Part shown: positions 1 to 14,469 of the stretch, in pieces | Numbering within the stretch: the stretch's first letter is position 1 | Layout: every line of letters starts with the position of its first letter | Virus genome (UHGV): UHGV-0142781 | Source of the DNA: a virus | Strand: one strand, 5' to 3' | Length of the DNA: 14,469 nucleotides | The notes under the pieces: generated by a model | What the model was told of the DNA's origin: nothing | The model's database searches: none | What the model saw: only the letters and a program-made list of their open reading frames with translations | Translations under genes and position numbers: made by a program

Positions 1-236
1 GACAGCAACCGGCATGTTCCATTATCAGCAGGCTGTGACCGTTCGACATACCCGGTAAACCAGCGCAGGACCAGACCATCATAACCAACATCGATCCGCA
101 CCATTTTGCCGGTGTAATCTGTCTCTGTCCCCGCCGTAATAAACCCCCGACCGCACGCGTTCAGCTCCAGCACGATATTGCAGTCAATCAGATGGACCGG
201 ATCAGAGGAAAGGTACAGGCGTTTAATTGGTTTCAT
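1..236 (-). CDS. Phage tail protein, N-terminal part (gene runs off window start); weak resemblance to P2 gpD (late control D / hub) N-terminus
   Basis: Reverse-strand ATG at 234-236; my translation begins MKPIKRLYLSSDPVHLIDCNIVLELNACGRGF... and stays open to position 1. The GRGF...G.DG.V...F.GYVE pattern loosely matches my recollection of gpD-family N-termini. Product identity is low-confidence. Confidence 0.45.
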   Translation of the reverse strand, partial: MKPIKRLYLSSDPVHLIDCNIVLELNACGRGFITAGTETDYTGKMVRIDVGYDGLVLRWFTGYVERSQPADNGTCRLL

Positions 237-243
237 CGTTTAA

Positions 244-786
244 TTACCCCAGCGCATCGTTGACCGGCTTTAAGACTTTTTCTTCAAACCAGCTCATTTT
301 GTCGGCTGGTTCATCAGCACCGGCAGCCGGACCCGCGCCCTTTGCCCCTGTTTGCTTGGTGCTGGCCGTCGCGTTGCCTTTTCGGGCCTGTCGTTTTTCC
401 GGGACACTGCCTTTTTCACGCAGGGTGAAACTTACCTGCCAGGCAAGGCGATCCTCCTGCGGTACGGCATCAATCTGACCGGTGAACGTGGCTTCACGAA
501 GGTTGATAGCCGTTGCCGTCGCATTGGCAACACGGTACTTTTTTAACGCGCCGCTGGCTTCGGTTGCGGATGCCAGCTGGAAAAGCCGCTGTAAGACGGC
601 TTCGTCGTCGAATGTCACCAGACCCGACACGCGCAGCTCTTTGGCCTTGATGCCCTGTTCAGCATTGGCCGTGCTCGATGTCTGGCCCGACTGGTCCTTC
701 TCCTGAAACTGCATGGAAGGTGAAACCAGCATGTTTTGCATGGCAATCCCTTCACCATCAAGCGCGAGTAGTGCGGTCTGGCTCAT
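244..786 (-). CDS. Hypothetical phage structural protein (position consistent with gpU-like tail protein)
   Basis: 180-aa ORF with AGGGAAG-type RBS upstream of its ATG; sits between the Ala-rich ORF and the gpD-like ORF on the same strand; host-like GC. Function assigned by position only. Confidence 0.5.
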   Translation of the reverse strand: MSQTALLALDGEGIAMQNMLVSPSMQFQEKDQSGQTSSTANAEQGIKAKELRVSGLVTFDDEAVLQRLFQLASATEASGALKKYRVANATATAINLREATFTGQIDAVPQEDRLAWQVSFTLREKGSVPEKRQARKGNATASTKQTGAKGAGPAAGADEPADKMSWFEEKVLKPVNDALG

Positions 787-1288
787 GTAGCATCTTCCCT
801 AAGTCAGATAACGAATCCCCGATAAACATCATCGCGGCGGTATGCACTGCCGTTGTTTGCGGGATGCCTTTCAGCAATTCAGCGGCAGCAACGGCATAAC
901 TTCCGCTGTAACTGAATGAAAAAATATTCGCACTGGCGGCTTTCAGGTCGTCCAGTCCCTGGCTGAGCGAGGACAGCAAACCGGCCCGTTCCTGAATAAA
1001 TCCCGTAACCTGATTTTTTAGATCTGTTGTGGTGGTACTGACTGCGGCGGCCAGCTGCGCGGCGGCAACACGCTGGGCATTCAGCGCCAGCCGGTTGGTT
1101 GAGACTGATAACGGCGCACTGGCTGGCAATACATCTGCTTTAACCGGCAACTGCATTTTTACTGTGCTGAGTTCTGCGGCCGCTGCCGCCATGCGGCTTA
1201 CCTGCGTAAATACCGGGGCCGGAAATACGGTGGACAGTTTATTCAGTCCCTGCATAAAAGCGTCATGGGTATTTTCCGCCACCATCAT
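758..1288 (-). CDS. Ala/Gly-rich phage protein, possibly a 5'-truncated tape-measure (gpT)-like remnant
   Basis: ORF track gives 758..1552, but that start would overlap the divergent Q start codon. The first plausible internal start is the MM pair at 1283-1288. The frame stays open upstream to 1552, as expected if the gene's 5' end was lost. Composition (poly-Ala, Q/L/S-rich) is tape-measure-like. Confidence 0.35.
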   Translation of the reverse strand: MMVAENTHDAFMQGLNKLSTVFPAPVFTQVSRMAAAAAELSTVKMQLPVKADVLPASAPLSVSTNRLALNAQRVAAAQLAAAVSTTTTDLKNQVTGFIQERAGLLSSLSQGLDDLKAASANIFSFSYSGSYAVAAAELLKGIPQTTAVHTAAMMFIGDSLSDLGKMLHEPDRTTRA

Positions 1289-1545
1289 GACGATAACGTC
1301 ACCACTTCCACCACCACTACCGGATAACAGCTTTTTAGCCAGATATCCCACCGCGTTGGCAGGGCTGAGATAACCGCCTGAATACCGGTTTTTAACGCGC
1401 TCAGGTCTTCCGCTTCCATGTTTTCCACGCTTTTGACGTATACCGTTACCGCCAGGGTGTGGCTGGTTATCTCGCACGCCGTAATTAACGAACCTATCGA
1501 TCACGAATATGACCGCCCATCGGGCTGGTACTTTGGGAAAGCAGC

Positions 1546-2607
1546 ATGACAAAGAAACAGCGTAAAAATAAAAAATTCGGGTCCATGACCGGCAACAAGG
1601 TTGAAACCTTCACGCCAGGGCGCGGAAGCGTGATCACCTTTGGCGAACCAGAACCCATCCTGACGACCGGCACTGATTATCACAATATCTGGTATGACAA
1701 TGAGTATGACCACTGGCGACTCCCGATTGATCGCCTGGCGCTGGCCCAGTTGCCGAACCTTAACGGCCAGCACGGCGGGGTACTGTATGCGCGGCGCAAT
1801 ATGGTGGCCGGTGGCTATATCGGCGGCGGCCTGACGCCTGACCAGGTCGAACAGGCTGTCTTTGATTACCTGCTGTTTGGTGACGTCGCTATCCTGAAAA
1901 TTCGTAACGTATTCGGGGAAGTGATCGACCTGCTGCCGCTGCCGTCGCTGTATCTGCGCTGCCGGAAAGACGGGTCGTTTGCCGTTCTGCAGGAAGGGCC
2001 AGCGCTTATCTATGACCCGGAAGACATCGTTTTCTTTAAAATGTACGACCCTCGCCAGCAGGTGTATGGCCTGCCTGACTATATCGGCGGCATCCATTCG
2101 GTGTTACTCAACAGTGAGGCAACCATCTTCAGGCGCCGTTACTACAATAACGGGGCGCACATGGGCTTTATTCTCTATACCAGCGATCCGAATCTGACGC
2201 TGGAAATGGAAAACGAAATCAAAGAGAAGATCGCCCAGTCCAAAGGGCTGGGTAACTTCCGCAATATGTTTATCAACATCCCGAAGGGCGACCCGGAAGG
2301 GGTTAAAATCCTGCCGGTGGGCGAAGTCAGCGCAAAGGACGAATTTGCCAACATCAAAGGGATCACCGCACAGGATATCTTTACCGCTCACCGTTTCCCC
2401 GCTGGCCTGGCGGGTATCATCCCGACCAATGGCGCGGTAATGGGCAACCCTGAAACCGCCCGCACAACCTATCGCAAGGATGAAGTTATCCCCTTGCAGC
2501 GCAAGCTAATGAACGGCGTCAACAATGACCCGGAGATCCCCGCACACTTGCACCTGGTTTTTGACGTGGATATCCCAGCAATTACCACCGAAAAGGGCGA
2601 AAAATGA
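1546..2607 (+). CDS. Q: Capsid portal protein (P2 gpQ family)
   Basis: 353 aa; motifs FGEPEP, IFRRRYYNNGAHMGFILY, SKGLGNFRNMF and EVSAKDEFANIKGITAQDIFTAHR match my recollection of P2 gpQ. GGGAAAG RBS at 1533-1539. Confidence 0.85.
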   Translation: MTKKQRKNKKFGSMTGNKVETFTPGRGSVITFGEPEPILTTGTDYHNIWYDNEYDHWRLPIDRLALAQLPNLNGQHGGVLYARRNMVAGGYIGGGLTPDQVEQAVFDYLLFGDVAILKIRNVFGEVIDLLPLPSLYLRCRKDGSFAVLQEGPALIYDPEDIVFFKMYDPRQQVYGLPDYIGGIHSVLLNSEATIFRRRYYNNGAHMGFILYTSDPNLTLEMENEIKEKIAQSKGLGNFRNMFINIPKGDPEGVKILPVGEVSAKDEFANIKGITAQDIFTAHRFPAGLAGIIPTNGAVMGNPETARTTYRKDEVIPLQRKLMNGVNNDPEIPAHLHLVFDVDIPAITTEKGEK

Positions 2608-2930
2608 GCGCAGTTAAGTTAAAATCATCCCCATTGTTAGCAATGGTGTGCGGGATGGTGAACATGCGAGTTTTTAAAATTAAATGTCCTGAATGCGGCT
2701 CACCGGCCATCATTCGCAAATCAGACTGGAAAGATAAAAAACTGGCCGATTTATACTGCGCCTGCACGGAAGTTGAATGCGGCCACACCTTTGTTTTTAA
2801 CGCCCAGTTTTCACATACTCTCAGCCCCAGCGGACTGACCGGCAACAAGCTGGTTAAATTTCTGATTGATCGGCTCAAACCAGACGAAAGACAATTCGCT
2901 TTAGATTTGCTAAACAACCATATTAATTAA
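2604..2930 (+). CDS. Ogr/Delta-family zinc-finger transcriptional activator (late-gene activator type)
   Basis: CPEC-x22-C-TEVE-C-GHTF matches the Ogr pattern C-x2-C-x22-C-x4-C-x2-TF (P2 Ogr: CPLC...CQNVNCSATF). ATG at 2604 overlaps the Q stop TGA at 2605-2607 (ATGA). An alternative start at 2664 (MRVFKIKCPEC) gives an Ogr-sized protein. Confidence 0.7.
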   Translation: MSAVKLKSSPLLAMVCGMVNMRVFKIKCPECGSPAIIRKSDWKDKKLADLYCACTEVECGHTFVFNAQFSHTLSPSGLTGNKLVKFLIDRLKPDERQFALDLLNNHIN

Positions 2931-2982: not shown

Positions 2983-4818
2983 ATGAGCAATTCAAAATAC
3001 ATTAATTTAGATGCGAGAATAAAAAAACTAAAAGAAGTTGTTAAAGATTTAGACACAAACACTTTAGCAACCTACTCTTTTTGGGAAATGTACAAATTTG
3101 GTACATTAGGTCAAAAAATTGAACTACAATCACCAGCACGACAAATCTTATATCTTTTTGGGATTGCATGTTCATCTGCTGAACCAACCGAACCAACTGA
3201 TAATGTTGAGGGTAAGATAAAACAAACAGTAGAGATCCTAAATGATATTTTTACAAAATATATGTTGGCGTACTTTCCAACCAAAGATGATTTAAAATCT
3301 GGATTAGAAGATGAATGGCATAAAGTTAGAGAAGTTGCTATGCCAATGTTTTCAAACTACTTTTTTGAAGGGTTAAAAGTTTCCACTGAAAACTTCAAAG
3401 GGATCATAAAAAATTATTTCAATGGTTTTGAAAATGAAATAAAAACACATTTTGGCTTAGATCACCATGAAATGGTAGAAATTTTAAATCTCATTGGTGA
3501 GCTTATACAGAGCAAATATGACAGATTCCGTGAAATAATGGATACATTAAAAGACGAACATGAGAAATTTAAAGAGAATAATTTTGAAAAACATGAAGAT
3601 TTTATAACATATATGGATGACATGAGGGAGCGTACAAAACATTTAGCACAAGAATTTCATGACTTCCTCAATGGGAGTGTATCATTCAAGTTTGATTCAA
3701 TAAGATGTAAACTTGGTGACGATGTCGTTGATAGTTTTATAAAAGCTTTCGTTACAGAGCGTGGAAACTCATCCGAAATCAAATACATTACTGATGAGAA
3801 TCCATTTTCATATAAACCGATAGTAACTGTAAATAATCTGGATTATATGCTCCCTTCTGCTAACGCAGCTTATGAAGCTATCATTCTTAATCTTGAAAAG
3901 TTTTTTAAAGAGTCAAAACACAATGATAAATTTAGAAAAGCCCGAGACAACAGGCTGGAACATGAGACTTTTTGCACCTTTAGAAATTTCTTCCCTGAAT
4001 CAACTACAATACTTGAAAGTGTATTTGAAACAAACAAATCCCATAATGAACATGATCTGATTATTTTCCATGATAAAACGATTCTTATTGTAGAGGCTAA
4101 AGCATCACCACGCCGCGCTCCATTGAGAGAACCAGCCAGAGCATACATTAGAATTAGAGATGATTTCAAACGTAAATCAGGAATACAAAGCGCATCTGAA
4201 CAAGCAAATAACTTAAGAAATTTAATCATTAATAATGAAAAAACATCATTATATGATAAAAAAGGTAATTTACTATATACCATAAATCGTTGTGACTACG
4301 ACAATATATATTGTATATGTGTCACTAAAGATGATTTCGGAATGCTTGCTACAAATTTAACTTTAATGTTAGAAAAAAAAGAAGATGAACCCTACCCTTG
4401 GGTTATTTGTATTCAAGACTTGAAGTTTTATTTTGATTGCCTTAAGGAAATAGATTTGGATCATGACTATTTCTTAAATTATATTCGTGAAAGAATAAAA
4501 ATACACGGCAAAGCAACGGCATGTGATGAGCTTGAATATGCAGGTGCATACTTGAATTATGGTGGTTTCGATTTCATTAATAAAGAAGTAAACTCTAACG
4601 TTTGTCTTGATATCTCTGAATCACGAGTATTCGATGAAATCCATATCGAAAAAGTTAATGGCAGGAAATATGTTCACCAGATTAAAAAACCTACTTACAG
4701 CATTTTAAATAGAGATAAATTAATTTCTTCTTTAAATTTCAATCACTCAAACAAAGATGCAAAAAAAGCAAAATCAAAAAGAAAGGAACAGAAAAAATCC
4801 AGAAAAAGAAACCGTTAA
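2983..4818 (+). CDS. Cargo protein with central PD-(D/E)xK-like nuclease motif and poly-basic C-terminal tail; candidate defence effector
   Basis: 611 aa, strongly AT-rich. Residues 356-373 read EHDLIIFHDKTILIVEAK (D-x12-ExK, nt ~4048-4101). C-terminal 23 residues are almost all K/R/S. No Walker A motif. Confidence 0.85.
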   Translation: MSNSKYINLDARIKKLKEVVKDLDTNTLATYSFWEMYKFGTLGQKIELQSPARQILYLFGIACSSAEPTEPTDNVEGKIKQTVEILNDIFTKYMLAYFPTKDDLKSGLEDEWHKVREVAMPMFSNYFFEGLKVSTENFKGIIKNYFNGFENEIKTHFGLDHHEMVEILNLIGELIQSKYDRFREIMDTLKDEHEKFKENNFEKHEDFITYMDDMRERTKHLAQEFHDFLNGSVSFKFDSIRCKLGDDVVDSFIKAFVTERGNSSEIKYITDENPFSYKPIVTVNNLDYMLPSANAAYEAIILNLEKFFKESKHNDKFRKARDNRLEHETFCTFRNFFPESTTILESVFETNKSHNEHDLIIFHDKTILIVEAKASPRRAPLREPARAYIRIRDDFKRKSGIQSASEQANNLRNLIINNEKTSLYDKKGNLLYTINRCDYDNIYCICVTKDDFGMLATNLTLMLEKKEDEPYPWVICIQDLKFYFDCLKEIDLDHDYFLNYIRERIKIHGKATACDELEYAGAYLNYGGFDFINKEVNSNVCLDISESRVFDEIHIEKVNGRKYVHQIKKPTYSILNRDKLISSLNFNHSNKDAKKAKSKRKEQKKSRKRNR

Positions 4819-4872
4819 CAAAATATCCTTTTGACGAATTCAAACCAACTGAACATATGGAGAAAATAAAAC

Positions 4873-6228
4873 ATGAGAATGACCGCCCCATTAAAATCAT
4901 TTTCTGATGGATTTTGTGAGAATGACGACATTTTTGAAAGAAAAAAACTTCACGACATTATTATGCGAGTTGCTACTAACGCGCCTGATAAAAGTTTAGT
5001 TTTAGCATTAGATGATAAATGGGGTAATGGGAAAACTTCATTTGTAAAAATGATGGAATCAGAAATAAGCAAAAAACATTCCGATGATTTCGAAGTCATC
5101 TATTTTGATGCATTTAAAAGTGATTATCAGTCGGATCCATTTGTAGCGTTAACTTCCAATATTTATTCGTTGGTTAGTAATGAAGAAGGCAAGCTAAAAA
5201 CATTAGGTGAAAAATTATTAAGTGCTGGTAAAAAACTAGGAGCTTCATTCCTTTTAAATGGTGCGAAGTTTGCAATCAGTACTATTTCAGGTGGGATGGT
5301 TTCTGGTACTGTAGTCGAAAAGGCAAGTGATACAATATCAGAATCCATATCATCACCTGTAGAAAAATACATAGAAGAAAAGATAAAAGCAAGTGAGAGT
5401 GAGTTTGCTACTATTGAGCAATTTGGAAATTTGTTAACTGAGATATACAAAGAAAGTGGAAAGAAAATATTTTTTATAATTGATGAATTAGACCGTGCAC
5501 GACCTGATTTTTCATTGGATTTATTAGAAAAGATAAAACATATATTCTCAGTAGAGGGTATTATTTTTCTATTGGTCGTCAATCGCGAACAATTTGAAAA
5601 AAGCATTGAGTCTCGATATGGCAATATAAACTCAAGATTGTATCTCAATAAATTTGTTCATTACTGGTTTTCGCTTCCCAAAACAAGCTGTTTATCTGAT
5701 GGTTGCTTAAATGGATATACTTATTCAACTATAAAACGATATTTACTTTCCATTGATAATGGAAACGACTTATTAAGTAGAAATGGTCCGCTTCTTAATA
5801 CACTATCATTGCTTTTGGAAATAAATGGAGCTTCTTTGAGAGAGGCGGAACGCTGTTACTCGGTATTTTCGGTTATCGAAGATGTCAATAAAGTAAACTA
5901 CTATACAAGTGATGCATATAAAGTAGCTTTGGGACTTGTTGTTTTCCTGAAAGTACATAACTCACAGTTGTTAACTGAAATTGTCTTAAAAAAAATCGTG
6001 TTAAAAGAAGCGATAGCCAAGCTTTTAATATACACAGTTCATCACCACAATATAATCGAAGCTCAATTCATTGAATATATCTTAAAGTACCATTACGCAA
6101 CAAATGAAGAATTAATAGAAGAAAGGAAGCAAAGAACATACTCTGATATAGAAGGTGGATATGGTCGAAGAACTCCCCTATTAGAAGGCATGTTTAAAAC
6201 AGTTGAGGGGTTTGATATTAGTTCTTAA
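4873..6228 (+). CDS. KAP-like P-loop NTPase; candidate defence partner
   Basis: 451 aa, AT-rich. Walker A-like DDKWGNGKTSF (res 47-57, nt 5011-5043) and Walker B FFIIDELDR (res 200-208), about 150 residues apart with a hydrophobic stretch between, as in KAP NTPases. 54-bp gap after the upstream gene, same strand. Confidence 0.85.
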   Translation: MRMTAPLKSFSDGFCENDDIFERKKLHDIIMRVATNAPDKSLVLALDDKWGNGKTSFVKMMESEISKKHSDDFEVIYFDAFKSDYQSDPFVALTSNIYSLVSNEEGKLKTLGEKLLSAGKKLGASFLLNGAKFAISTISGGMVSGTVVEKASDTISESISSPVEKYIEEKIKASESEFATIEQFGNLLTEIYKESGKKIFFIIDELDRARPDFSLDLLEKIKHIFSVEGIIFLLVVNREQFEKSIESRYGNINSRLYLNKFVHYWFSLPKTSCLSDGCLNGYTYSTIKRYLLSIDNGNDLLSRNGPLLNTLSLLLEINGASLREAERCYSVFSVIEDVNKVNYYTSDAYKVALGLVVFLKVHNSQLLTEIVLKKIVLKEAIAKLLIYTVHHHNIIEAQFIEYILKYHYATNEELIEERKQRTYSDIEGGYGRRTPLLEGMFKTVEGFDISS

Positions 6229-6319: not shown

Positions 6320-8932
6320 TTATTTTGGGTGACTACCATCCACACCCGCCAGCATTTTTTGATACTCCCCGACCGGATCAAACCGCAGGCGCGTGGCATC
6401 AATACCGTGGTTATCACGCAGACGGTCCCATAATTTATTCACCGTCCGTGACTCATCGAGTAATTGACGCGTTATCAACTCGCCGCCAGCACTGCCCCGA
6501 TAAACTTTGCCGCCAATCTCCAGACGGCTCCCCATTAACAGCGAAACAGCCTGAATCTCTGAAATCTCAACCGAACACAACGCCGCATCAGCCAGCAGAC
6601 TGGCAACCTCAGGGGCAAGCGCTGCCCGCCTGGCTTTTTCAGCCGCCGATCTGGCCTCGGTTTTTTTAACGGCAGAACGCCAGGCAACATCTAATTCGCT
6701 CCCTGGCTCATAAGGTGATCCGCTTTGCCGCCTTTTGAATGGTGCTTCACGTAGTCGCCGCATCAATTTTCGCCGCGTTGGCTGGTCCATATTTTCAAAA
6801 TCGACGATTTCCTCTTCTGATTCTTCTGTCATACCCTCCACATCACGCGAAAAATCGGTGATTTTTTCGTCTTCCGTAGAGTTATTGACAGAACTCCAAG
6901 CGTCGCCGGTTGGCGACGGCAAAAGGTCAACCCCCAAACCGGGGCCGTTTTTGGCCTCGGTGGTAGCTTTAGATTTGGCGCAGATTTTCCACTTAACCAG
7001 ACGGGTACAAATACGGGAGGCATCACCCAGACGCGGCGACCAGACCCCGAAAACCTTTTCGGGGATCTCACAATAAGCATTCATTTCATCAGCTGGCTGA
7101 TAGGCCAGACGGACGACATAGTTTTCTCGCGGGATCAAAACCCCACCCTGGCGGATGATGTAGGTAGCAAAGCACCCGACATCGGCAGCGGCGCAAACCG
7201 CATCCATTGCAGGATCCACAAGCAACGGCGCACCGCGTTTGAAGGTATTGTCAATTTTCTGGCGGGTCGTGATTTGATTGCTCAGTTTGCGCAGCTCGCG
7301 GTAAACCGATATGGGCGGCTGTCCGATAGGCTGAAACTGGCGGATACGGTGAAGCGATGCCCAGGCCATTGCATATTTGGCGGTTTCATTCAGCGGCTTG
7401 CCGCTTTCGTCGTCCAGTTCACCGGCCAGCGCGTGGCCGTCGATATTCTTCGAAATGTATTTAGCGATATATGCCGTTGCCGACCCTTTCCGTGGGTCCA
7501 TTTTTTTTGACTTGAAACGAGCACCGGTATTGCGGCCCAGCTCATCGCGGTCTTCCGCAATGAAGTAGGCGCGAAGGATCGCAACCGTGGCTTTGACTTG
7601 CTCTTGTGGCATAAACAGCAACGCGTGCCAGTGTGGTGTCCCATCGTGATGCGGCTCGGCGACACGGAAGCCATAAGGGCGCAAATCTTCGCGTTTCAGT
7701 TTGGCGGTTGCACGGTTCCATACACGGCATAAATAGCGCTGCGCCTGGGCGACGGTGGAATGATTCCATTTGGCATTATGGTGGCCGGACGCAATATTAC
7801 TGTGATATTTCGACGGGCAAGTGATGGTCAGGAAAATACCAACATCGCCGCGACTTTGGGCGACAAGTTCAACGCCAGCCATTCTGGTCATAAGCTCATG
7901 GCGACGAATAGCCGGGTTAGACGTGGATTTATTAATCATTTCCTCAAGCGACGAAACGTTGCCGTCTTCGTCTACCAGTTCATGACTTTTGAAAAAATCC
8001 CGGTTTTTACGGCGCTGTTCCTGCCACTCGATCAGGCTGGAAGCGCTAACGTAGGCGTGCGCTTTTTTATTTACCGCGCCAACAGCACGCAGCTGGTTCT
8101 CGCGCCAGTCACAACGCAAGCGCCAGATTTTTCGCCCCCACCAGTCAGGCGAAGCCATACGCAAAATGGCCGTGCATATGCGCTCGCGTTCCCACGGCGC
8201 ATACCATGCAGGCGGCACAATACGAAGCGCCAGCATTTCTCGGCCCAGGTGGCAATAAAGCCAGTCCAGTTCTTCGACGTTCATGTCGGAAACATTCCGC
8301 CCTAGGGCTTCGCATTCCGTCCCCAGCATTTCAGCCATGCGGCTGGCGATCTCATTAGCGGCGCTTAGTGCATCCCGCTTTGTGAAATCAGCCAGACGTT
8401 GCCAGCGCCCGAACCAGTACGCGGCCAGTTCGCCGGTGATATCAGGCGAAACACCTTGCCTTGTGCGTACAACATCAAGACGCAGCAATGATTTTTTCAC
8501 GGTTCCCATAAGAAAATCATTGGTGTGTCTGGTTTCACGGTTGACCCGTAACCACTCAATTTTTTTTCGCCAGACTTCACGAATGAAGAACGGCTCTGCT
8601 AATAAACGCGCTTCGACACCTTCCGGCGTATTGGTCCAGGCTGCCGTCGTAGATTTGGCGGCTTCCATTTCCTGCCGGATTAAATTTTGATGGGCGGCCA
8701 GTGGCAGGCCGCACGGTTCGTACCTGTCCAGCGCCTGGATAAGCGCGTTACGGTCCCGCACCTCGTCGGGGTTGTAACCGGCGTGTCTGAAGATGTGATC
8801 GATGTGTTTTTTTACGGCAGGATGATGCGCCACCGCCCCGGCAAGCGGGGCGATTTTTTTCGGTTCGTAGGTGTACAGGCCAACAGCTGGGCGCGGCGCG
8901 TTCCAGGGCCATGCAAAAGCTGTGTCAGACAT
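6320..8932 (-). CDS. A: Replication initiation protein (P2 gpA family rolling-circle endonuclease)
   Basis: About 870 aa at the expected position upstream of the cargo slot; identified by size, synteny and general resemblance to gpA. ORF track starts at a GTG at 8950; the ATG at 8930-8932 (MSDTAF...) is the more likely start. Confidence 0.85.
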   Translation of the reverse strand: MSDTAFAWPWNAPRPAVGLYTYEPKKIAPLAGAVAHHPAVKKHIDHIFRHAGYNPDEVRDRNALIQALDRYEPCGLPLAAHQNLIRQEMEAAKSTTAAWTNTPEGVEARLLAEPFFIREVWRKKIEWLRVNRETRHTNDFLMGTVKKSLLRLDVVRTRQGVSPDITGELAAYWFGRWQRLADFTKRDALSAANEIASRMAEMLGTECEALGRNVSDMNVEELDWLYCHLGREMLALRIVPPAWYAPWERERICTAILRMASPDWWGRKIWRLRCDWRENQLRAVGAVNKKAHAYVSASSLIEWQEQRRKNRDFFKSHELVDEDGNVSSLEEMINKSTSNPAIRRHELMTRMAGVELVAQSRGDVGIFLTITCPSKYHSNIASGHHNAKWNHSTVAQAQRYLCRVWNRATAKLKREDLRPYGFRVAEPHHDGTPHWHALLFMPQEQVKATVAILRAYFIAEDRDELGRNTGARFKSKKMDPRKGSATAYIAKYISKNIDGHALAGELDDESGKPLNETAKYAMAWASLHRIRQFQPIGQPPISVYRELRKLSNQITTRQKIDNTFKRGAPLLVDPAMDAVCAAADVGCFATYIIRQGGVLIPRENYVVRLAYQPADEMNAYCEIPEKVFGVWSPRLGDASRICTRLVKWKICAKSKATTEAKNGPGLGVDLLPSPTGDAWSSVNNSTEDEKITDFSRDVEGMTEESEEEIVDFENMDQPTRRKLMRRLREAPFKRRQSGSPYEPGSELDVAWRSAVKKTEARSAAEKARRAALAPEVASLLADAALCSVEISEIQAVSLLMGSRLEIGGKVYRGSAGGELITRQLLDESRTVNKLWDRLRDNHGIDATRLRFDPVGEYQKMLAGVDGSHPK

Positions 8933-9146
8933 TGGATGCCCCGCTATCACCCTCCCGCTGGGAATGTTTTTCGATTAGCGGGTCGAGTAACACATTGAAA
9001 GAAATCAACAGCGTATTTGCGGCTTCACTTCCGGCGAGAACACCCGCGAACGTTGCGTGTGCAAGGGCCAGTGTTTTGGCTTCGTTAAGCGCAGCCAGTG
9101 CGCCGCGCTGGTATTCCGAAAGACCGTTATTAATTTTGTTAGCCAT
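8925..9146 (-). CDS. Small hypothetical phage early protein
   Basis: 73 aa; its ATG overlaps the dam stop (TGATG at ~9144-9148), suggesting translational coupling; position matches the small ORFs before A in P2. Confidence 0.6.
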   Translation of the reverse strand: MANKINNGLSEYQRGALAALNEAKTLALAHATFAGVLAGSEAANTLLISFNVLLDPLIEKHSQREGDSGASNV

Positions 9147-11800: not shown

Positions 11801-12076
11801 TTATGATGGATTGCCCAGACCCAACCACATTAACCACCCTTCCCTAATTTCCTTCGGGCGGCTCTCATACGCCATTTTCATTCCGTTGTTCCATGCTGGG
11901 AGGTAGACCCAGTACTCACCTGCCCGCCCGGAAGTTGATTGCGGATCGGTCATCTCAACTACGGGTAGCTTTCCTTTTTCAATCATCCCCTTCACCGCTG
12001 CCGGTGTTTTACCAATGAGTTTTGCGAACTCCTGATATGGGACGGCATCTGTGCTTAACGCGATCTGTTTAACCAT
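11801..12076 (-). CDS. cox: Cox (excisionase / lytic-switch regulator)
   Basis: 91 aa; translation tracks my recollection of P2 Cox over most of its length (AIPYQEFAKLIGK, DPQSTSGRAGEYWVYLPAWNNG, ESRPKEIREGWLMWLGLG). GAGGG RBS. Confidence 0.9.
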   Translation of the reverse strand: MVKQIALSTDAVPYQEFAKLIGKTPAAVKGMIEKGKLPVVEMTDPQSTSGRAGEYWVYLPAWNNGMKMAYESRPKEIREGWLMWLGLGNPS

Positions 12077-12192
12077 TTAAGGCCCTCACAAGTTTAAGAA
12101 TCGTCACCAATGGCTTATAGTTGCCTTTGATGTTCATTTCTAAACATCAAACAGTCTACATCTAAATCAAATGGTATTGAGATCTAAACACT
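12077..12192. promoter_or_regulatory. Immunity switch region between cox and C (early and repressor promoters with operator repeats)
   Basis: Three direct repeats TCTAAACA (12139-12146), TCTAAATC (12161-12168), TCTAAACA (12183-12190), exactly 22 bp apart. A TATAAG -10-like element on the minus strand (~12113-12118) faces cox. Confidence 0.6.
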
Positions 12193-12492
12193 ATGTCAAA
12201 CGCCTTAAACGAGAAAATTGTACTCATCAGAAAGTCTGAGTATCTCAGCAGACAGCAACTAGCTGATTTAACAGGCATTCCCTATGGCACTTTAAGTTAT
12301 TACGAAAGTGGTCGTTCTACACCGCCCACGGACGTAATGATGAGGATTTTGCAAATGCCCCAATTCAGCAAATACACGTTGTGGTTTATGACCGATCAGG
12401 TTGCTCCCGAAGCCGGTCAGATAGCACCGGCCCTCGCACACTTTGGGCAAGATGTAACAACATCGCAGCACTCAGACCAAAAGATTGGTTAA
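12193..12492 (+). CDS. C: Immunity repressor C
   Basis: 99 aa; near-collinear with my recollection of P2 C (EKIVLIRKSEYLSRQQLADLTGIPYGTLSYYESGRSTPPTDVMM...), same length. Confidence 0.9.
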   Translation: MSNALNEKIVLIRKSEYLSRQQLADLTGIPYGTLSYYESGRSTPPTDVMMRILQMPQFSKYTLWFMTDQVAPEAGQIAPALAHFGQDVTTSQHSDQKIG

Positions 12493-12637: not shown

Positions 12638-13645
12638 ATGACAATTAAGAAACTCGATGATGGTCGTTATGAAGTGGATATCAGACCTGCAGGGCGCAAC
12701 GGAAAGCGCATCCGCAGGAAATTTGACAAGAAAAGTGAGGCTGTAGCTTTTGAGAAACACACTCAATACAACCATCACGATAAAGAATGGCTGGCTAAAC
12801 CGACAGATAAGCGGCATCTGTCTGAATTAACAAAAGTCTGGTGGGATCTGAAAGGCAAGCATGAAGAACACGGAAAATCCAATTTGGGTAAGATTGAAAT
12901 CTTTACCCGGATCACTGATGACCCTTGCGCGTTCCAGATAACCAAAGCGCTTATTAGCCAGTACAGCATGACTCGCAGAGGGCAAGGCATAAAACCGGCC
13001 AGTATTAACCGCGACCTTACCTGCTTGAGTGGTATGTTTACTGCGCTAATTGATGCGGAGTTGTTTTTTGGCGAACACCCTTTCAGAGGGATGAAAAAGC
13101 TCAAGGAGCAGAAACCAGAAACAGGCTATCTGACGCAGGAAGAAATAACATTGTTGCTTGCCAATCTTGACGGGGACAACAAGAAAATCGCGATTCTCTG
13201 TTTAAGTACCGGCGCTCGATGGGGTGAGGCCGCGAAACTGAAAGCTGAGAACGTAATACAGAATCGGGTGACGTTCGTTAAAACAAAGACGAACAAACCA
13301 CGTACTGTCCCTATCTCTGAGGAAGTAGCTGTAATGATTGCGGGTAAAGGGTATCTGTTCCCAGATGCCTCATACCCGAAGTTCAGGCGAACAATGAAAG
13401 ATGTAAAACCAGATCTACCGGACGGGCAAGCAACTCACGCATTGCGTCACAGTTTTGCTACCCACTTTATGATTAACGGCGGGAGTATCATCACCTTGCA
13501 GAGAATACTGGGACATTCACGGATAGAGCAGACAATGGTCTATGCGCACTTTGCCCCGGAGTATCTTCAGGATGCTGTTTCACTCAATCCGCTACGTGGT
13601 GGTGTTGACTCCCAGAGTGTCCACACTGTGTCCACAGTAGGGTAG
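12638..13645 (+). CDS. int: Tyrosine integrase (P2 Int family)
   Basis: 335 aa; N-terminus MTIKKLDDGRYEVDIRPAGRNGKRIRRKFDKKSEAVAFEK and C-terminal HALRHSFATHFM...LGHSRIEQTMVYAHFAPEY match P2 Int as I recall it. GGGGG RBS. Confidence 0.95.
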   Translation: MTIKKLDDGRYEVDIRPAGRNGKRIRRKFDKKSEAVAFEKHTQYNHHDKEWLAKPTDKRHLSELTKVWWDLKGKHEEHGKSNLGKIEIFTRITDDPCAFQITKALISQYSMTRRGQGIKPASINRDLTCLSGMFTALIDAELFFGEHPFRGMKKLKEQKPETGYLTQEEITLLLANLDGDNKKIAILCLSTGARWGEAAKLKAENVIQNRVTFVKTKTNKPRTVPISEEVAVMIAGKGYLFPDASYPKFRRTMKDVKPDLPDGQATHALRHSFATHFMINGGSIITLQRILGHSRIEQTMVYAHFAPEYLQDAVSLNPLRGGVDSQSVHTVSTVG

Positions 13646-13726
13646 TTTATTATGGCTTTCAGTGGTCTTGCGTGCCGCGCAAACCCGCATTGCACCGCTG
13701 AAAGCCCATGTTACCTACCCTGAAAA

Positions 13727-13753
13727 ACGCCCTTACGCAGGCTTATTTTTTGC
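13727..13753. other. Candidate attL core (P2 att-core-like sequence) marking the prophage-host junction
   Basis: CGCCCTTACGCAGGCTTATTTTTTG is close to the reverse complement of the P2 core as I recall it (AAAAAATAAGCCCGTGTAAGGGAGATT); lies about 80 bp after the int stop, just before the clpA terminator. Confidence 0.45.
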
Positions 13754-13804
13754 CTGCCGTTTAAACTCCCTGAATATCCCAATTCAAATCACTTTTATCA
13801 GGCG

Positions 13805-13829
13805 AAAAAAAACCGGGCATTACGCCCGG
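13805..13829 (-). terminator. Rho-independent terminator of clpA
   Basis: Minus strand reads GCCGGGC-GTAAT-GCCCGG followed by eight U (stem 13813-13818 / 13824-13829, U-run 13805-13812), about 20 bp after the clpA stop. Confidence 0.75.
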
Positions 13830-13848
13830 CTGATTAGGTGATTAAAGA

Positions 13849-14469
13849 TTAATGTGCAGCTTCTGGCTTGTGCTTTTGCGCACTCTGGAAACCATAAGTC
13901 AGCTCATTTTTCTCTTTATCCAGCGCAACGGTCACCTGGCCACCATCCACCAGCGAACCGAACAGCAGTTCGTTAGCCAATGGTTTTTTCAGGTTATCCT
14001 GGACAACACGCGTCATTGGACGTGCGCCCATTGCGCGGTCGTAGCCTTTCTCTGCCAGCCAGTCACGTGCTTCCTGGCTCACTTCCAGAGAGACACCTTT
14101 CTGATCCAGCTGAACCTGAAGCTCGACGATAAACTTATCAACAACCTGATGAATCACCTCGGTAGAGAGATGATCAAACCAGATAATGTTGTCGAGGCGG
14201 TTACGGAATTCCGGCGTAAACACTTTTTTGATTTCGCCCATTGCATCAGTACTATTGTCCTGATGAATCAACCCAATCGATTTACGCTCAGTTTCACGCA
14301 CACCGGCGTTGGTGGTCATGACCAGCACCACATTGCGGAAATCCGCTTTACGCCCGTTATTGTCGGTCAGCGTGCCGTTATCCATCACCTGCAACAGCAG
14401 GTTAAAGACATCCGGGTGTGCTTTTTCGATTTCATCCAGCAGCAGTACCGCATGCGGATGCTTAATAAC
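13849..14469 (-). CDS. clpA: ATP-dependent Clp protease ATP-binding subunit ClpA, C-terminal part (gene runs off window end)
   Basis: Translation ...LLQVMDNGTLTDNNGRKADFRNVVLVMTTNAG...ALDKEKNELTYGFQSAQKHKPEAAH matches the ClpA C-terminus nearly residue for residue; stop at 13849-13851. Confidence 0.95.
   Translation of the reverse strand, partial: VIKHPHAVLLLDEIEKAHPDVFNLLLQVMDNGTLTDNNGRKADFRNVVLVMTTNAGVRETERKSIGLIHQDNSTDAMGEIKKVFTPEFRNRLDNIIWFDHLSTEVIHQVVDKFIVELQVQLDQKGVSLEVSQEARDWLAEKGYDRAMGARPMTRVVQDNLKKPLANELLFGSLVDGGQVTVALDKEKNELTYGFQSAQKHKPEAAH

Follow-up and report, generated by a model that had tools for sequence, protein, structure and literature searches.

The stretch of DNA analyzed here (hereafter the window) comprises 14,469 nucleotides of the virus genome UHGV-0142781 and contains the end of a P2-like prophage devoted to immunity and integration, namely cox, the C repressor gene, int and, between cox and C, divergent Pe/Pc-like promoters found by a promoter scan. 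An inverted repeat, the subject of this work, lies just downstream of int. The parts of the region that surround it are given below with their coordinates in the window.

11801-12076, minus strand: cox, 91 amino acids, whose product is predicted to bind the site; about 80% identical to P2 Cox (translation comparison; tblastn against the P2 locus)
12094-12121, plus strand: Pc-like promoter, probable source of the C-int transcript; promoter scan, position matching Pc in the P2 annotation
12193-12492: C repressor gene
12638-13645, plus strand: int, P2-type tyrosine integrase, 335 amino acids; from the ORF list, 86.6% amino acid identity to P2 Int (tblastn), with annotated homologues in E. coli prophages
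13617-13625 and 13628-13636, unstranded: two direct Int arm-type repeats GTGTCCACA, 11 bp apart, in the 3' end of int; 25/27 against the P2 feature "Int, P' arm" (24470-24496)
13635-13708, unstranded: equivalent of the Cox-bound region of P2 (AF063097, 24399-24472); gap-free alignment, 58/74 identical
13724-13751, unstranded: P2-type core (crossover); 24/28 identical to the P2 attP core (24356-24383)

Similarity to phage P2, and to the E. coli prophages located beside yegR, stops at 13751; beyond this position there is host DNA, with a minus-strand terminator (13811-13831) and part of the gene for a ClpA/ClpB-type AAA protein, namely its C-terminal 206 codons. The junction is attL in P2 usage, the boundary between a P2-like prophage and its host. 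Since the inverted repeat is flanked by the Int arm repeats and the core, and similarity ends at 13751, the repeat is phage DNA and belongs to the int-proximal arm. Another, 6-bp inverted repeat runs across the phage/host boundary, GCAGGC (13737-13742) with GCCTGC (13752-13757).

The same int and arm (98% identical DNA) adjoin yegR in E. coli, with the core ...CCCTTACACGGGCTTATTTTTT, and in the window and in Citrobacter youngae (locus L015) int and its arm adjoin a ClpA/ClpB-type gene, with the core ...CCCTTACGCAGGCTTATTTTTT. A yegR site and a ClpA/ClpB-type site occurring with the same integrase type thus indicate one integrase and two host loci, the cores of which differ at two positions.

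At the other end of the window (1-2930) the gene order is unlike that of P2: the stop of a portal ORF (1546-2607; phrog_68, E 3e-118) overlaps the start of an Ogr/Delta-type zinc-finger ORF (2604-2930) that comes next, and no open terminase ORF was found upstream of the portal, where there are instead the minus-strand ORFs 244-786 (HP1_ORF34 family) and 758-1552. Bases 6-1468 give a 95% match to the tail region of the Salmonella P2-like phages SW5, SW3 and SI7; the window could be a rearranged or mosaic prophage. Two plus-strand ORFs between the portal gene and gene A (2983-6228) are in the position of the variable anti-phage hotspot of P2; the product of the second (4873-6228) is a KAP-family P-loop NTPase that matches PDC-S20, a candidate defence family of PADLOC (E 9e-72), and has weaker matches to PifA and QatA, and the first (2983-4818, 611 amino acids) gave no Pfam, PHROG or PADLOC match. 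The tRNA/tmRNA scan (ARAGORN) found no gene in the window.

An inverted repeat between int and the core

The stem of the repeat starts after a gap of 8 nt from the int stop codon (TAG, 13643-13645), and its parts, all of them written on the int-sense strand, are as follows.

13654-13666, plus strand: left arm GGCTTTCAGTGGT; from sequence and fold, 13/13 identical to P2
13667-13693, plus strand: hairpin loop of 27 nt, including the conserved core CAAACCCGCATTG and a short internal helix; 20/27 identical to P2
13694-13706, plus strand: right arm ACCGCTGAAAGCC; from sequence and fold, 12/13 identical to P2

Paired with each other (13654-13666 with 13694-13706), the arms form a stem of 13 pairs, including one T.G, that closes the 27-nt loop. 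A first-pass annotation, made from the letters of the window alone, had described two 12-mers pairing at about 11 of 12 positions around a GC-rich loop with a smaller palindrome inside. The two 12-mers, GGCTTTCAGTGG and CCGCTGAAAGCC, do exist and form 11 Watson-Crick pairs plus one T.G, but their positions had to be corrected, the left one being 13654-13665 and not 13664-13675 (10 bases off) and the right one 13695-13706 and not 13696-13707 (1 base off); one extra T-A pair lengthens this pairing to 13 bp. The loop also agrees with the description, the 29 bases that separate the 12-mers having 62% G+C and small internal pairings being present, TGCG (13669-72) with CGCA (13686-89) and GTGC (13672-75) with GCAT (13687-90).

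RNA folding, suggested in the same annotation as a check on the int 3' UTR, gave a stable stem, with -27.7 kcal/mol for 13650-13710 (z = -4.45; 0 of 200 shuffles as good), and as DNA the same segment reached -16.7 kcal/mol (z = -4.17). On the coordinates first proposed the fold was unremarkable, because the left arm is cut off there. Inverted repeats of comparable quality (12-bp arm, at most 1 mismatch, loop of 3-40 nt) numbered 2 in the window against 1.25 ± 1.2 per dinucleotide-shuffled window; such a repeat is thus expected about once per shuffled window, and the statistics of a single sequence are not significant. That the hairpin is real is shown, rather than by chance statistics, by the fact that about 200 related loci conserve it and display compensatory changes.

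The only other similar inverted repeat of the window, CAGCAATGATTTTTT with AGAAAATCATTGGTG (8483-8525; 12-bp arms, one mismatch), is inside the homologue of replication gene A (6320-8950, minus strand; Phage_GPA, E 5e-107), and could be related to the origin/nick site carried within gene A of P2-type phages.

A stable stem right after a stop codon would suit an intrinsic (Rho-independent) terminator of int, and about one repeat of such quality per window is what a chance palindrome would amount to; we give practically no credence to either. No T/U run is found 3' of the hairpin on either strand, as the first-pass annotation had rightly noted in arguing against a classic terminator, a terminator scan of 13640-13760 returned no site and a 27-nt loop is atypical, while chance is excluded by the conservation and covariation observed across the roughly 200 loci. 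Rfam covariance models at E ≤ 10 gave no match overlapping 13646-13760; the only matches obtained at that threshold fell on the clp-gene terminator (13805-13858) and were discarded as noise.

A probable Cox-binding region in the P' arm

In the GenBank record of P2 (AF063097) three features follow each other from int, "Int, P' arm" (24470-24496), the protein_bind feature "Cox" (24399-24472) and "Int, attP core" (24356-24383); the IHF site and the second Int arm site are both on the far (ogr) side of the core, IHF being annotated there only. Cox binding in P2 was taken from this annotation and from two later papers, and was mapped onto the window by alignment. The whole repeat falls inside the window equivalent of the Cox-bound stretch of P2. 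Comparison with the attP arm sites of P2, also proposed at first pass, revealed that P2 itself carries the same inverted repeat within that stretch, GGGCTTTCAGTGGTA with TACCGTTGAAAGCCC, with an RNA fold of -24.8 kcal/mol (z -5.5).

The Cox region of the P' arm of P2 attP is in the same place as the repeat of the window, directly after int, with the Int P' arm repeats on one side of it and the core on the other. Identity between both phages is patchy, being 25/26 in the arms of the repeat, 20/27 in the loop (7 changes), 25/27 in the Int arm sites and 24/28 in the core, in contrast with a diverged spacer between repeat and core (6/17). The window also differs from P2 in having its junction next to a ClpA/ClpB-type gene, which is not a known P2 locus.

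P2 Cox recognises 9-bp cox-boxes, TTAAA(G/C)NC(A/C), whose starts are 10-11 bp apart; P2 attP has six of them in two orientations, and filaments were proposed to grow from there toward the core and the Int arm sites (PMC3936717). When this consensus was searched for in the arm of the window, two box-like 9-mers stood out, one in each arm of the repeat and divergent, the remaining candidates carrying 2-3 mismatches, so that a convincing set of six boxes was not recognised.

13653-13661, minus strand: 9-mer TGAAAGCCA resembling a cox-box, with a single mismatch and directed outward from the loop
13699-13707, plus strand: 9-mer TGAAAGCCC resembling a cox-box, with a single mismatch and directed outward from the loop

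The consensus is degenerate and, allowing at most 1 mismatch, occurs 69 times in the window where 50 occurrences would be expected, therefore these two matches alone carry little weight. The distribution of the element along with the type of Cox gives stronger support to the link than the motif matches do: all the element-bearing loci with a scorable cox encode a Cox 78-100% identical to that of the window (57-100% for the C repressor). Phages WPhi, P2_4A7b and Fels-2 (Int 39-55% identical) have the int gene and no equivalent hairpin, so the element is lineage-specific and not general in the family. The Cox protein of WPhi does not bind cox-boxes and recognises other sequences (PMC5009727).

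The Int arm-type repeat GTGTCCACA is absent within 13654-13706, being present only at 13617-13625 and 13628-13636. The first-pass annotation had proposed here a structure in the att arm bound by a recombination protein, which was right in substance, as the repeat is in a P2-type P' arm and inside the annotated Cox-bound stretch of P2; the protein, however, would be the excision factor Cox and not Int, and its target would be duplex DNA and not an extruded structure. Protection of the stretch by Cox has been shown by others for P2, and we infer its transfer to this phage from the position, homology, conservation and distribution presented here. We therefore consider, with good confidence, that at the DNA level the repeat serves as a Cox site. 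As far as position, homology and cognate protein can place it, the site is of an ordinary and already characterised kind, the Cox-site family of P2 attP/attL.

According to the mechanism we propose, the phage's own Cox would bind the duplex cooperatively, starting at the two outward-facing 9-mers in the arms, and would extend toward the Int arm sites on one side and toward the core on the other. The coated P' arm would then bend, enabling Int to excise the prophage from attL, with integration being blocked.

Excision-factor arrays between arm-type sites and core are also formed by the Xis sites of lambda (X1, X1.5, X2) and by the Apl sites of phage 186 at attP. The lambda and 186 arrays are direct repeats about one helical turn apart; unlike them, the two best sites of the window are inverted, 38 bp apart and able to pair mutually. 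The likeness is in the protein and its proposed action, a small winged-helix factor occupying repeated sites of a single att arm cooperatively, bending that arm and determining which way recombination runs (in part from PMC7498355).

Conservation and covariation of the stem

Related loci were collected from three sources, one genome per species, viral contigs chosen by Int similarity and viral contigs chosen by loop-anchored patterns in which the arms were left free. The element was present in about 200 related loci, across core types (the P2-type core and two terminator-like cores), as 52 distinct variants. Failure of the element to be conserved in related prophage junctions had been named beforehand as what would speak against it, and we found it strongly conserved. 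Scanning viral contigs with a Klebsiella-type loop anchor yielded several new variants, none of which breaks the stem, and with a Kluyvera-type loop anchor no new element variants; in a metagenome scan with a 14-base loop anchor nine loci passed the element filter, all of them chance matches.

Two loci displayed partial losses. At L035 (Kluyvera intermedia), where int is truncated, a deletion has removed the hairpin's left arm and one of the arm repeats is missing, though the hairpin's right arm and the core persist; at L037 (Citrobacter youngae ATCC 29220) the hairpin is kept, one Int arm repeat is lost and the loop has changes. Both are likely decaying prophages.

When the 13-bp stem was imposed on the 52 variants, 98.8% of the 676 cells formed a standard pair as int-sense RNA, compared with 35-53% in slid-stem controls. 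Three pairs change on both sides, a number reached by 0 of 500 shuffles, and a fourth switches as well; as the variants are related, the counts below are not independent events.

L1/R13: G-C in 49 variants, G.U in 2, A-U in 1
L9/R5: G-C in 27, G.U in 8, A-U in 17
L12/R2: G-C in 51, A-U in 1
L10/R4 (the fourth switching pair): U.G in 46, C-G in 5, U-A in 1

Pairs L9/R5, L10/R4 and L12/R2 are outside the cox-box-like 9-mers.

The polarity of the changes between strands was analyzed in 47 variants, that is the set before the Klebsiella- and Kluyvera-type anchor scans. One-sided changes at L3, L5, L6, L7 and L8 always give G.U on the int-sense strand, and pairing is broken only by a single A.C, seen once in a P2-type copy, by T.C in two cases and by part of the changes at the closing pair; this asymmetry of G.U over A.C is based on about 8 positions against 1-2. 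Among the transitions in the stem, counted over related variants, 13 of 15 events keep the sense-strand pairing, since 5 of the 7 G>A/T>C events there either have a compensating change or turn a wobble into a better pair; loop columns, used as a control for mutation bias, had 7 C>T/A>G and 7 G>A/T>C events. The sense strand was 98.7% paired versus 88.4% for the antisense strand, and the long stem was folded by all 47 variants, the sense strand being the more stable one in 39.

Correction of quasi-palindromes by template switching could mimic compensation of this kind. Two opposed Cox sites would form a quasi-palindrome and one arm would occasionally be copied onto the other, while the pairing as such would be functionless. 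In E. coli, mutation by template switching at imperfect inverted repeats is well established; single-stranded DNA could allow the 13-bp stem to fold around its 27-nt loop, and just 3-4 pairs covary, in variants that are related. The T.G at L10/R4, however, persists uncorrected in 46 of the 52 variants, and template switching would not be expected to prefer G.U-type to A.C-type mispairs on one of the strands. The inner stem L9-L13, moreover, is complementary although outside the 9-mers, and two boxes alone would not create it. We consider this explanation quite improbable.

The difference between strands also bears on the idea of a DNA cruciform, whose architectural role would be to bend the P' arm and so place the Int arm sites near the core. 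The repeat is indeed midway between the arm sites and the core, and the IHF motif WATCAANNNNTTR (at most 1 mismatch) was found nowhere in 13499-14135, which covers the hairpin arm (13640-13760); in P2, IHF is annotated only on the ogr side of the core. A 27-nt loop, on the other hand, makes cruciform extrusion very costly, and both strands must pair, when the antisense strand would carry the A.C mismatches responsible for its lower pairing. A cruciform is not described for P2 in PMC3936717 or PMC5009727 either, and we regard it as very improbable.

The loop is conserved too: its core CAAACCCGCATTG equals the stem in conservation, and AACCCGCATT hardly changes from one variant to another, an indication that the sequence itself is recognised.

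A possible RNA layer in the C-int transcript

The terminator scan found no plus-strand terminator between the Pc-like promoter and the hairpin, or after int. The Pc (C-int) transcript would read through the repeat and fold into a stem-loop 8 nt after the int stop. Since no intrinsic terminator follows, the likeliest role of such a structure would be that of a barrier to 3' exonucleases or 3'-end determinant, or of a handle regulating Int synthesis. Cox binding fails to explain the compensatory, sense-polar changes outside the boxes, so an RNA stem-loop is the simplest addition to it. The other proposal of the first-pass annotation, an element that would stabilise int mRNA, is compatible with the pairing kept on the int-sense strand. 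Judging from these substitution patterns, selection of the arm pairing itself as an int-sense RNA stem-loop comes close to an even call, falling slightly on the doubtful side. The conserved sequence of the loop is more than a simple stabiliser hairpin needs, and it counts against this RNA layer. The work of Yu and colleagues from 1994 is said to describe self-regulation of P2 Int by binding to its own mRNA.

The RNA might also be taken as the whole of the matter, the repeat being then a stem-loop of the C-int 3' UTR (exonuclease barrier, RNase III target or site of Int autoregulation) and the protection by Cox incidental to the coating of the arm. Such a view would account for the compensatory and G.U-type changes on the sense strand, including those at three pairs outside the 9-mers, for the folding of the stem in 47 of 47 variants tested, and for the place of the hairpin, 8 nt after the stop and with no terminator downstream; non-homologous strong hairpins in the same place of P2-like prophages of Enterobacter and Erwinia (L019-L021) also speak in its favour. 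In PMC11789052, P2 Int is cited (Yu et al. 1994) as a viral protein regulated through its own mRNA, a case of autoregulation that would agree with this view as well. Against it, the loop core is conserved as strongly as the stem, the element occurs only alongside a P2-type Cox, the Cox-bound stretch of P2 coincides almost exactly with the repeat, and WPhi, Fels-2 and P2_4A7b have int yet no such hairpin. A role at the RNA level only is in our opinion unlikely.

The hairpins of L019-L021, prophages with an Int 51% identical to that of the window, consist of AAGGCGCTCGTAACGTA with TACGTTGAGCGCCTT, about 20-60 nt after the int stop, and fold with -24 to -29 kcal/mol; their sequence is unlike the window element. 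In a Vibrio relative (L027) inverted copies of GGCGACA, perhaps its Int arm-type repeat, overlap the int stop. The family may repeatedly have palindromes right after int, with unrelated sequences.

A hairpin downstream of int is also known from lambda, where sib/tI controls the decay of int mRNA through RNase III. The lambda sib element is beyond the core, so that it becomes separated from int in the prophage, and sib/tI has a U run. Like sib/tI, the element of the window is a stable hairpin in the transcript 3' of int which could control Int synthesis post-transcriptionally; unlike it, the hairpin (13654-13706) is between int (end 13645) and the core (13724-13751), stays linked to int and has no U run. 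A retroregulator of the lambda sib type was accordingly rejected, as its defining feature is a hairpin beyond the core. The 3'-UTR stabiliser stem-loops found at the mature 3' ends of Rho-terminated transcripts are similar in having the stem just after the stop, no U run and no intrinsic terminator downstream; these, however, need no conserved loop, whereas in the window the loop is conserved as the stem is, and the DNA is a predicted protein-binding site.

Returning to the Cox site, the reading we favour as a whole, and think likely, is that the attachment site is of the P2 type and that the repeat forms the conserved middle of the segment bound by Cox in its int-proximal (P') arm, with an RNA layer as an addition. 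A more specific form of it, in which the same sequence would be both a duplex site for Cox and a selected stem-loop of the C-int 3' UTR, setting the stability of int mRNA or serving as a handle for Int self-regulation, is possible, although we lean slightly against it. Such dual use would amount to a sib-like control that, unlike that of lambda, stays attached to int in the prophage.

The analysis places the prophage boundary precisely, with the arm sites, the Cox region and the core of attL beside a ClpA/ClpB-type gene, and for annotation purposes the repeat is a recombination-control site and not a terminator or a host element. The relevance of these results is modest and of a specialist kind, the understanding of attachment sites being unchanged. 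Textbook P2 biology is exceeded at a single point, the sense-strand pairing kept via G.U intermediates, including outside the 9-mers; this RNA-level pairing constraint is not mentioned in the P2 papers cited here. If it reflects a true RNA structure, one short sequence would couple the control of excision (DNA and Cox) with integrase dosage (RNA), and the post-transcriptional control of P2 Int, which is poorly understood, would gain a concrete candidate that a few mutants could probe.
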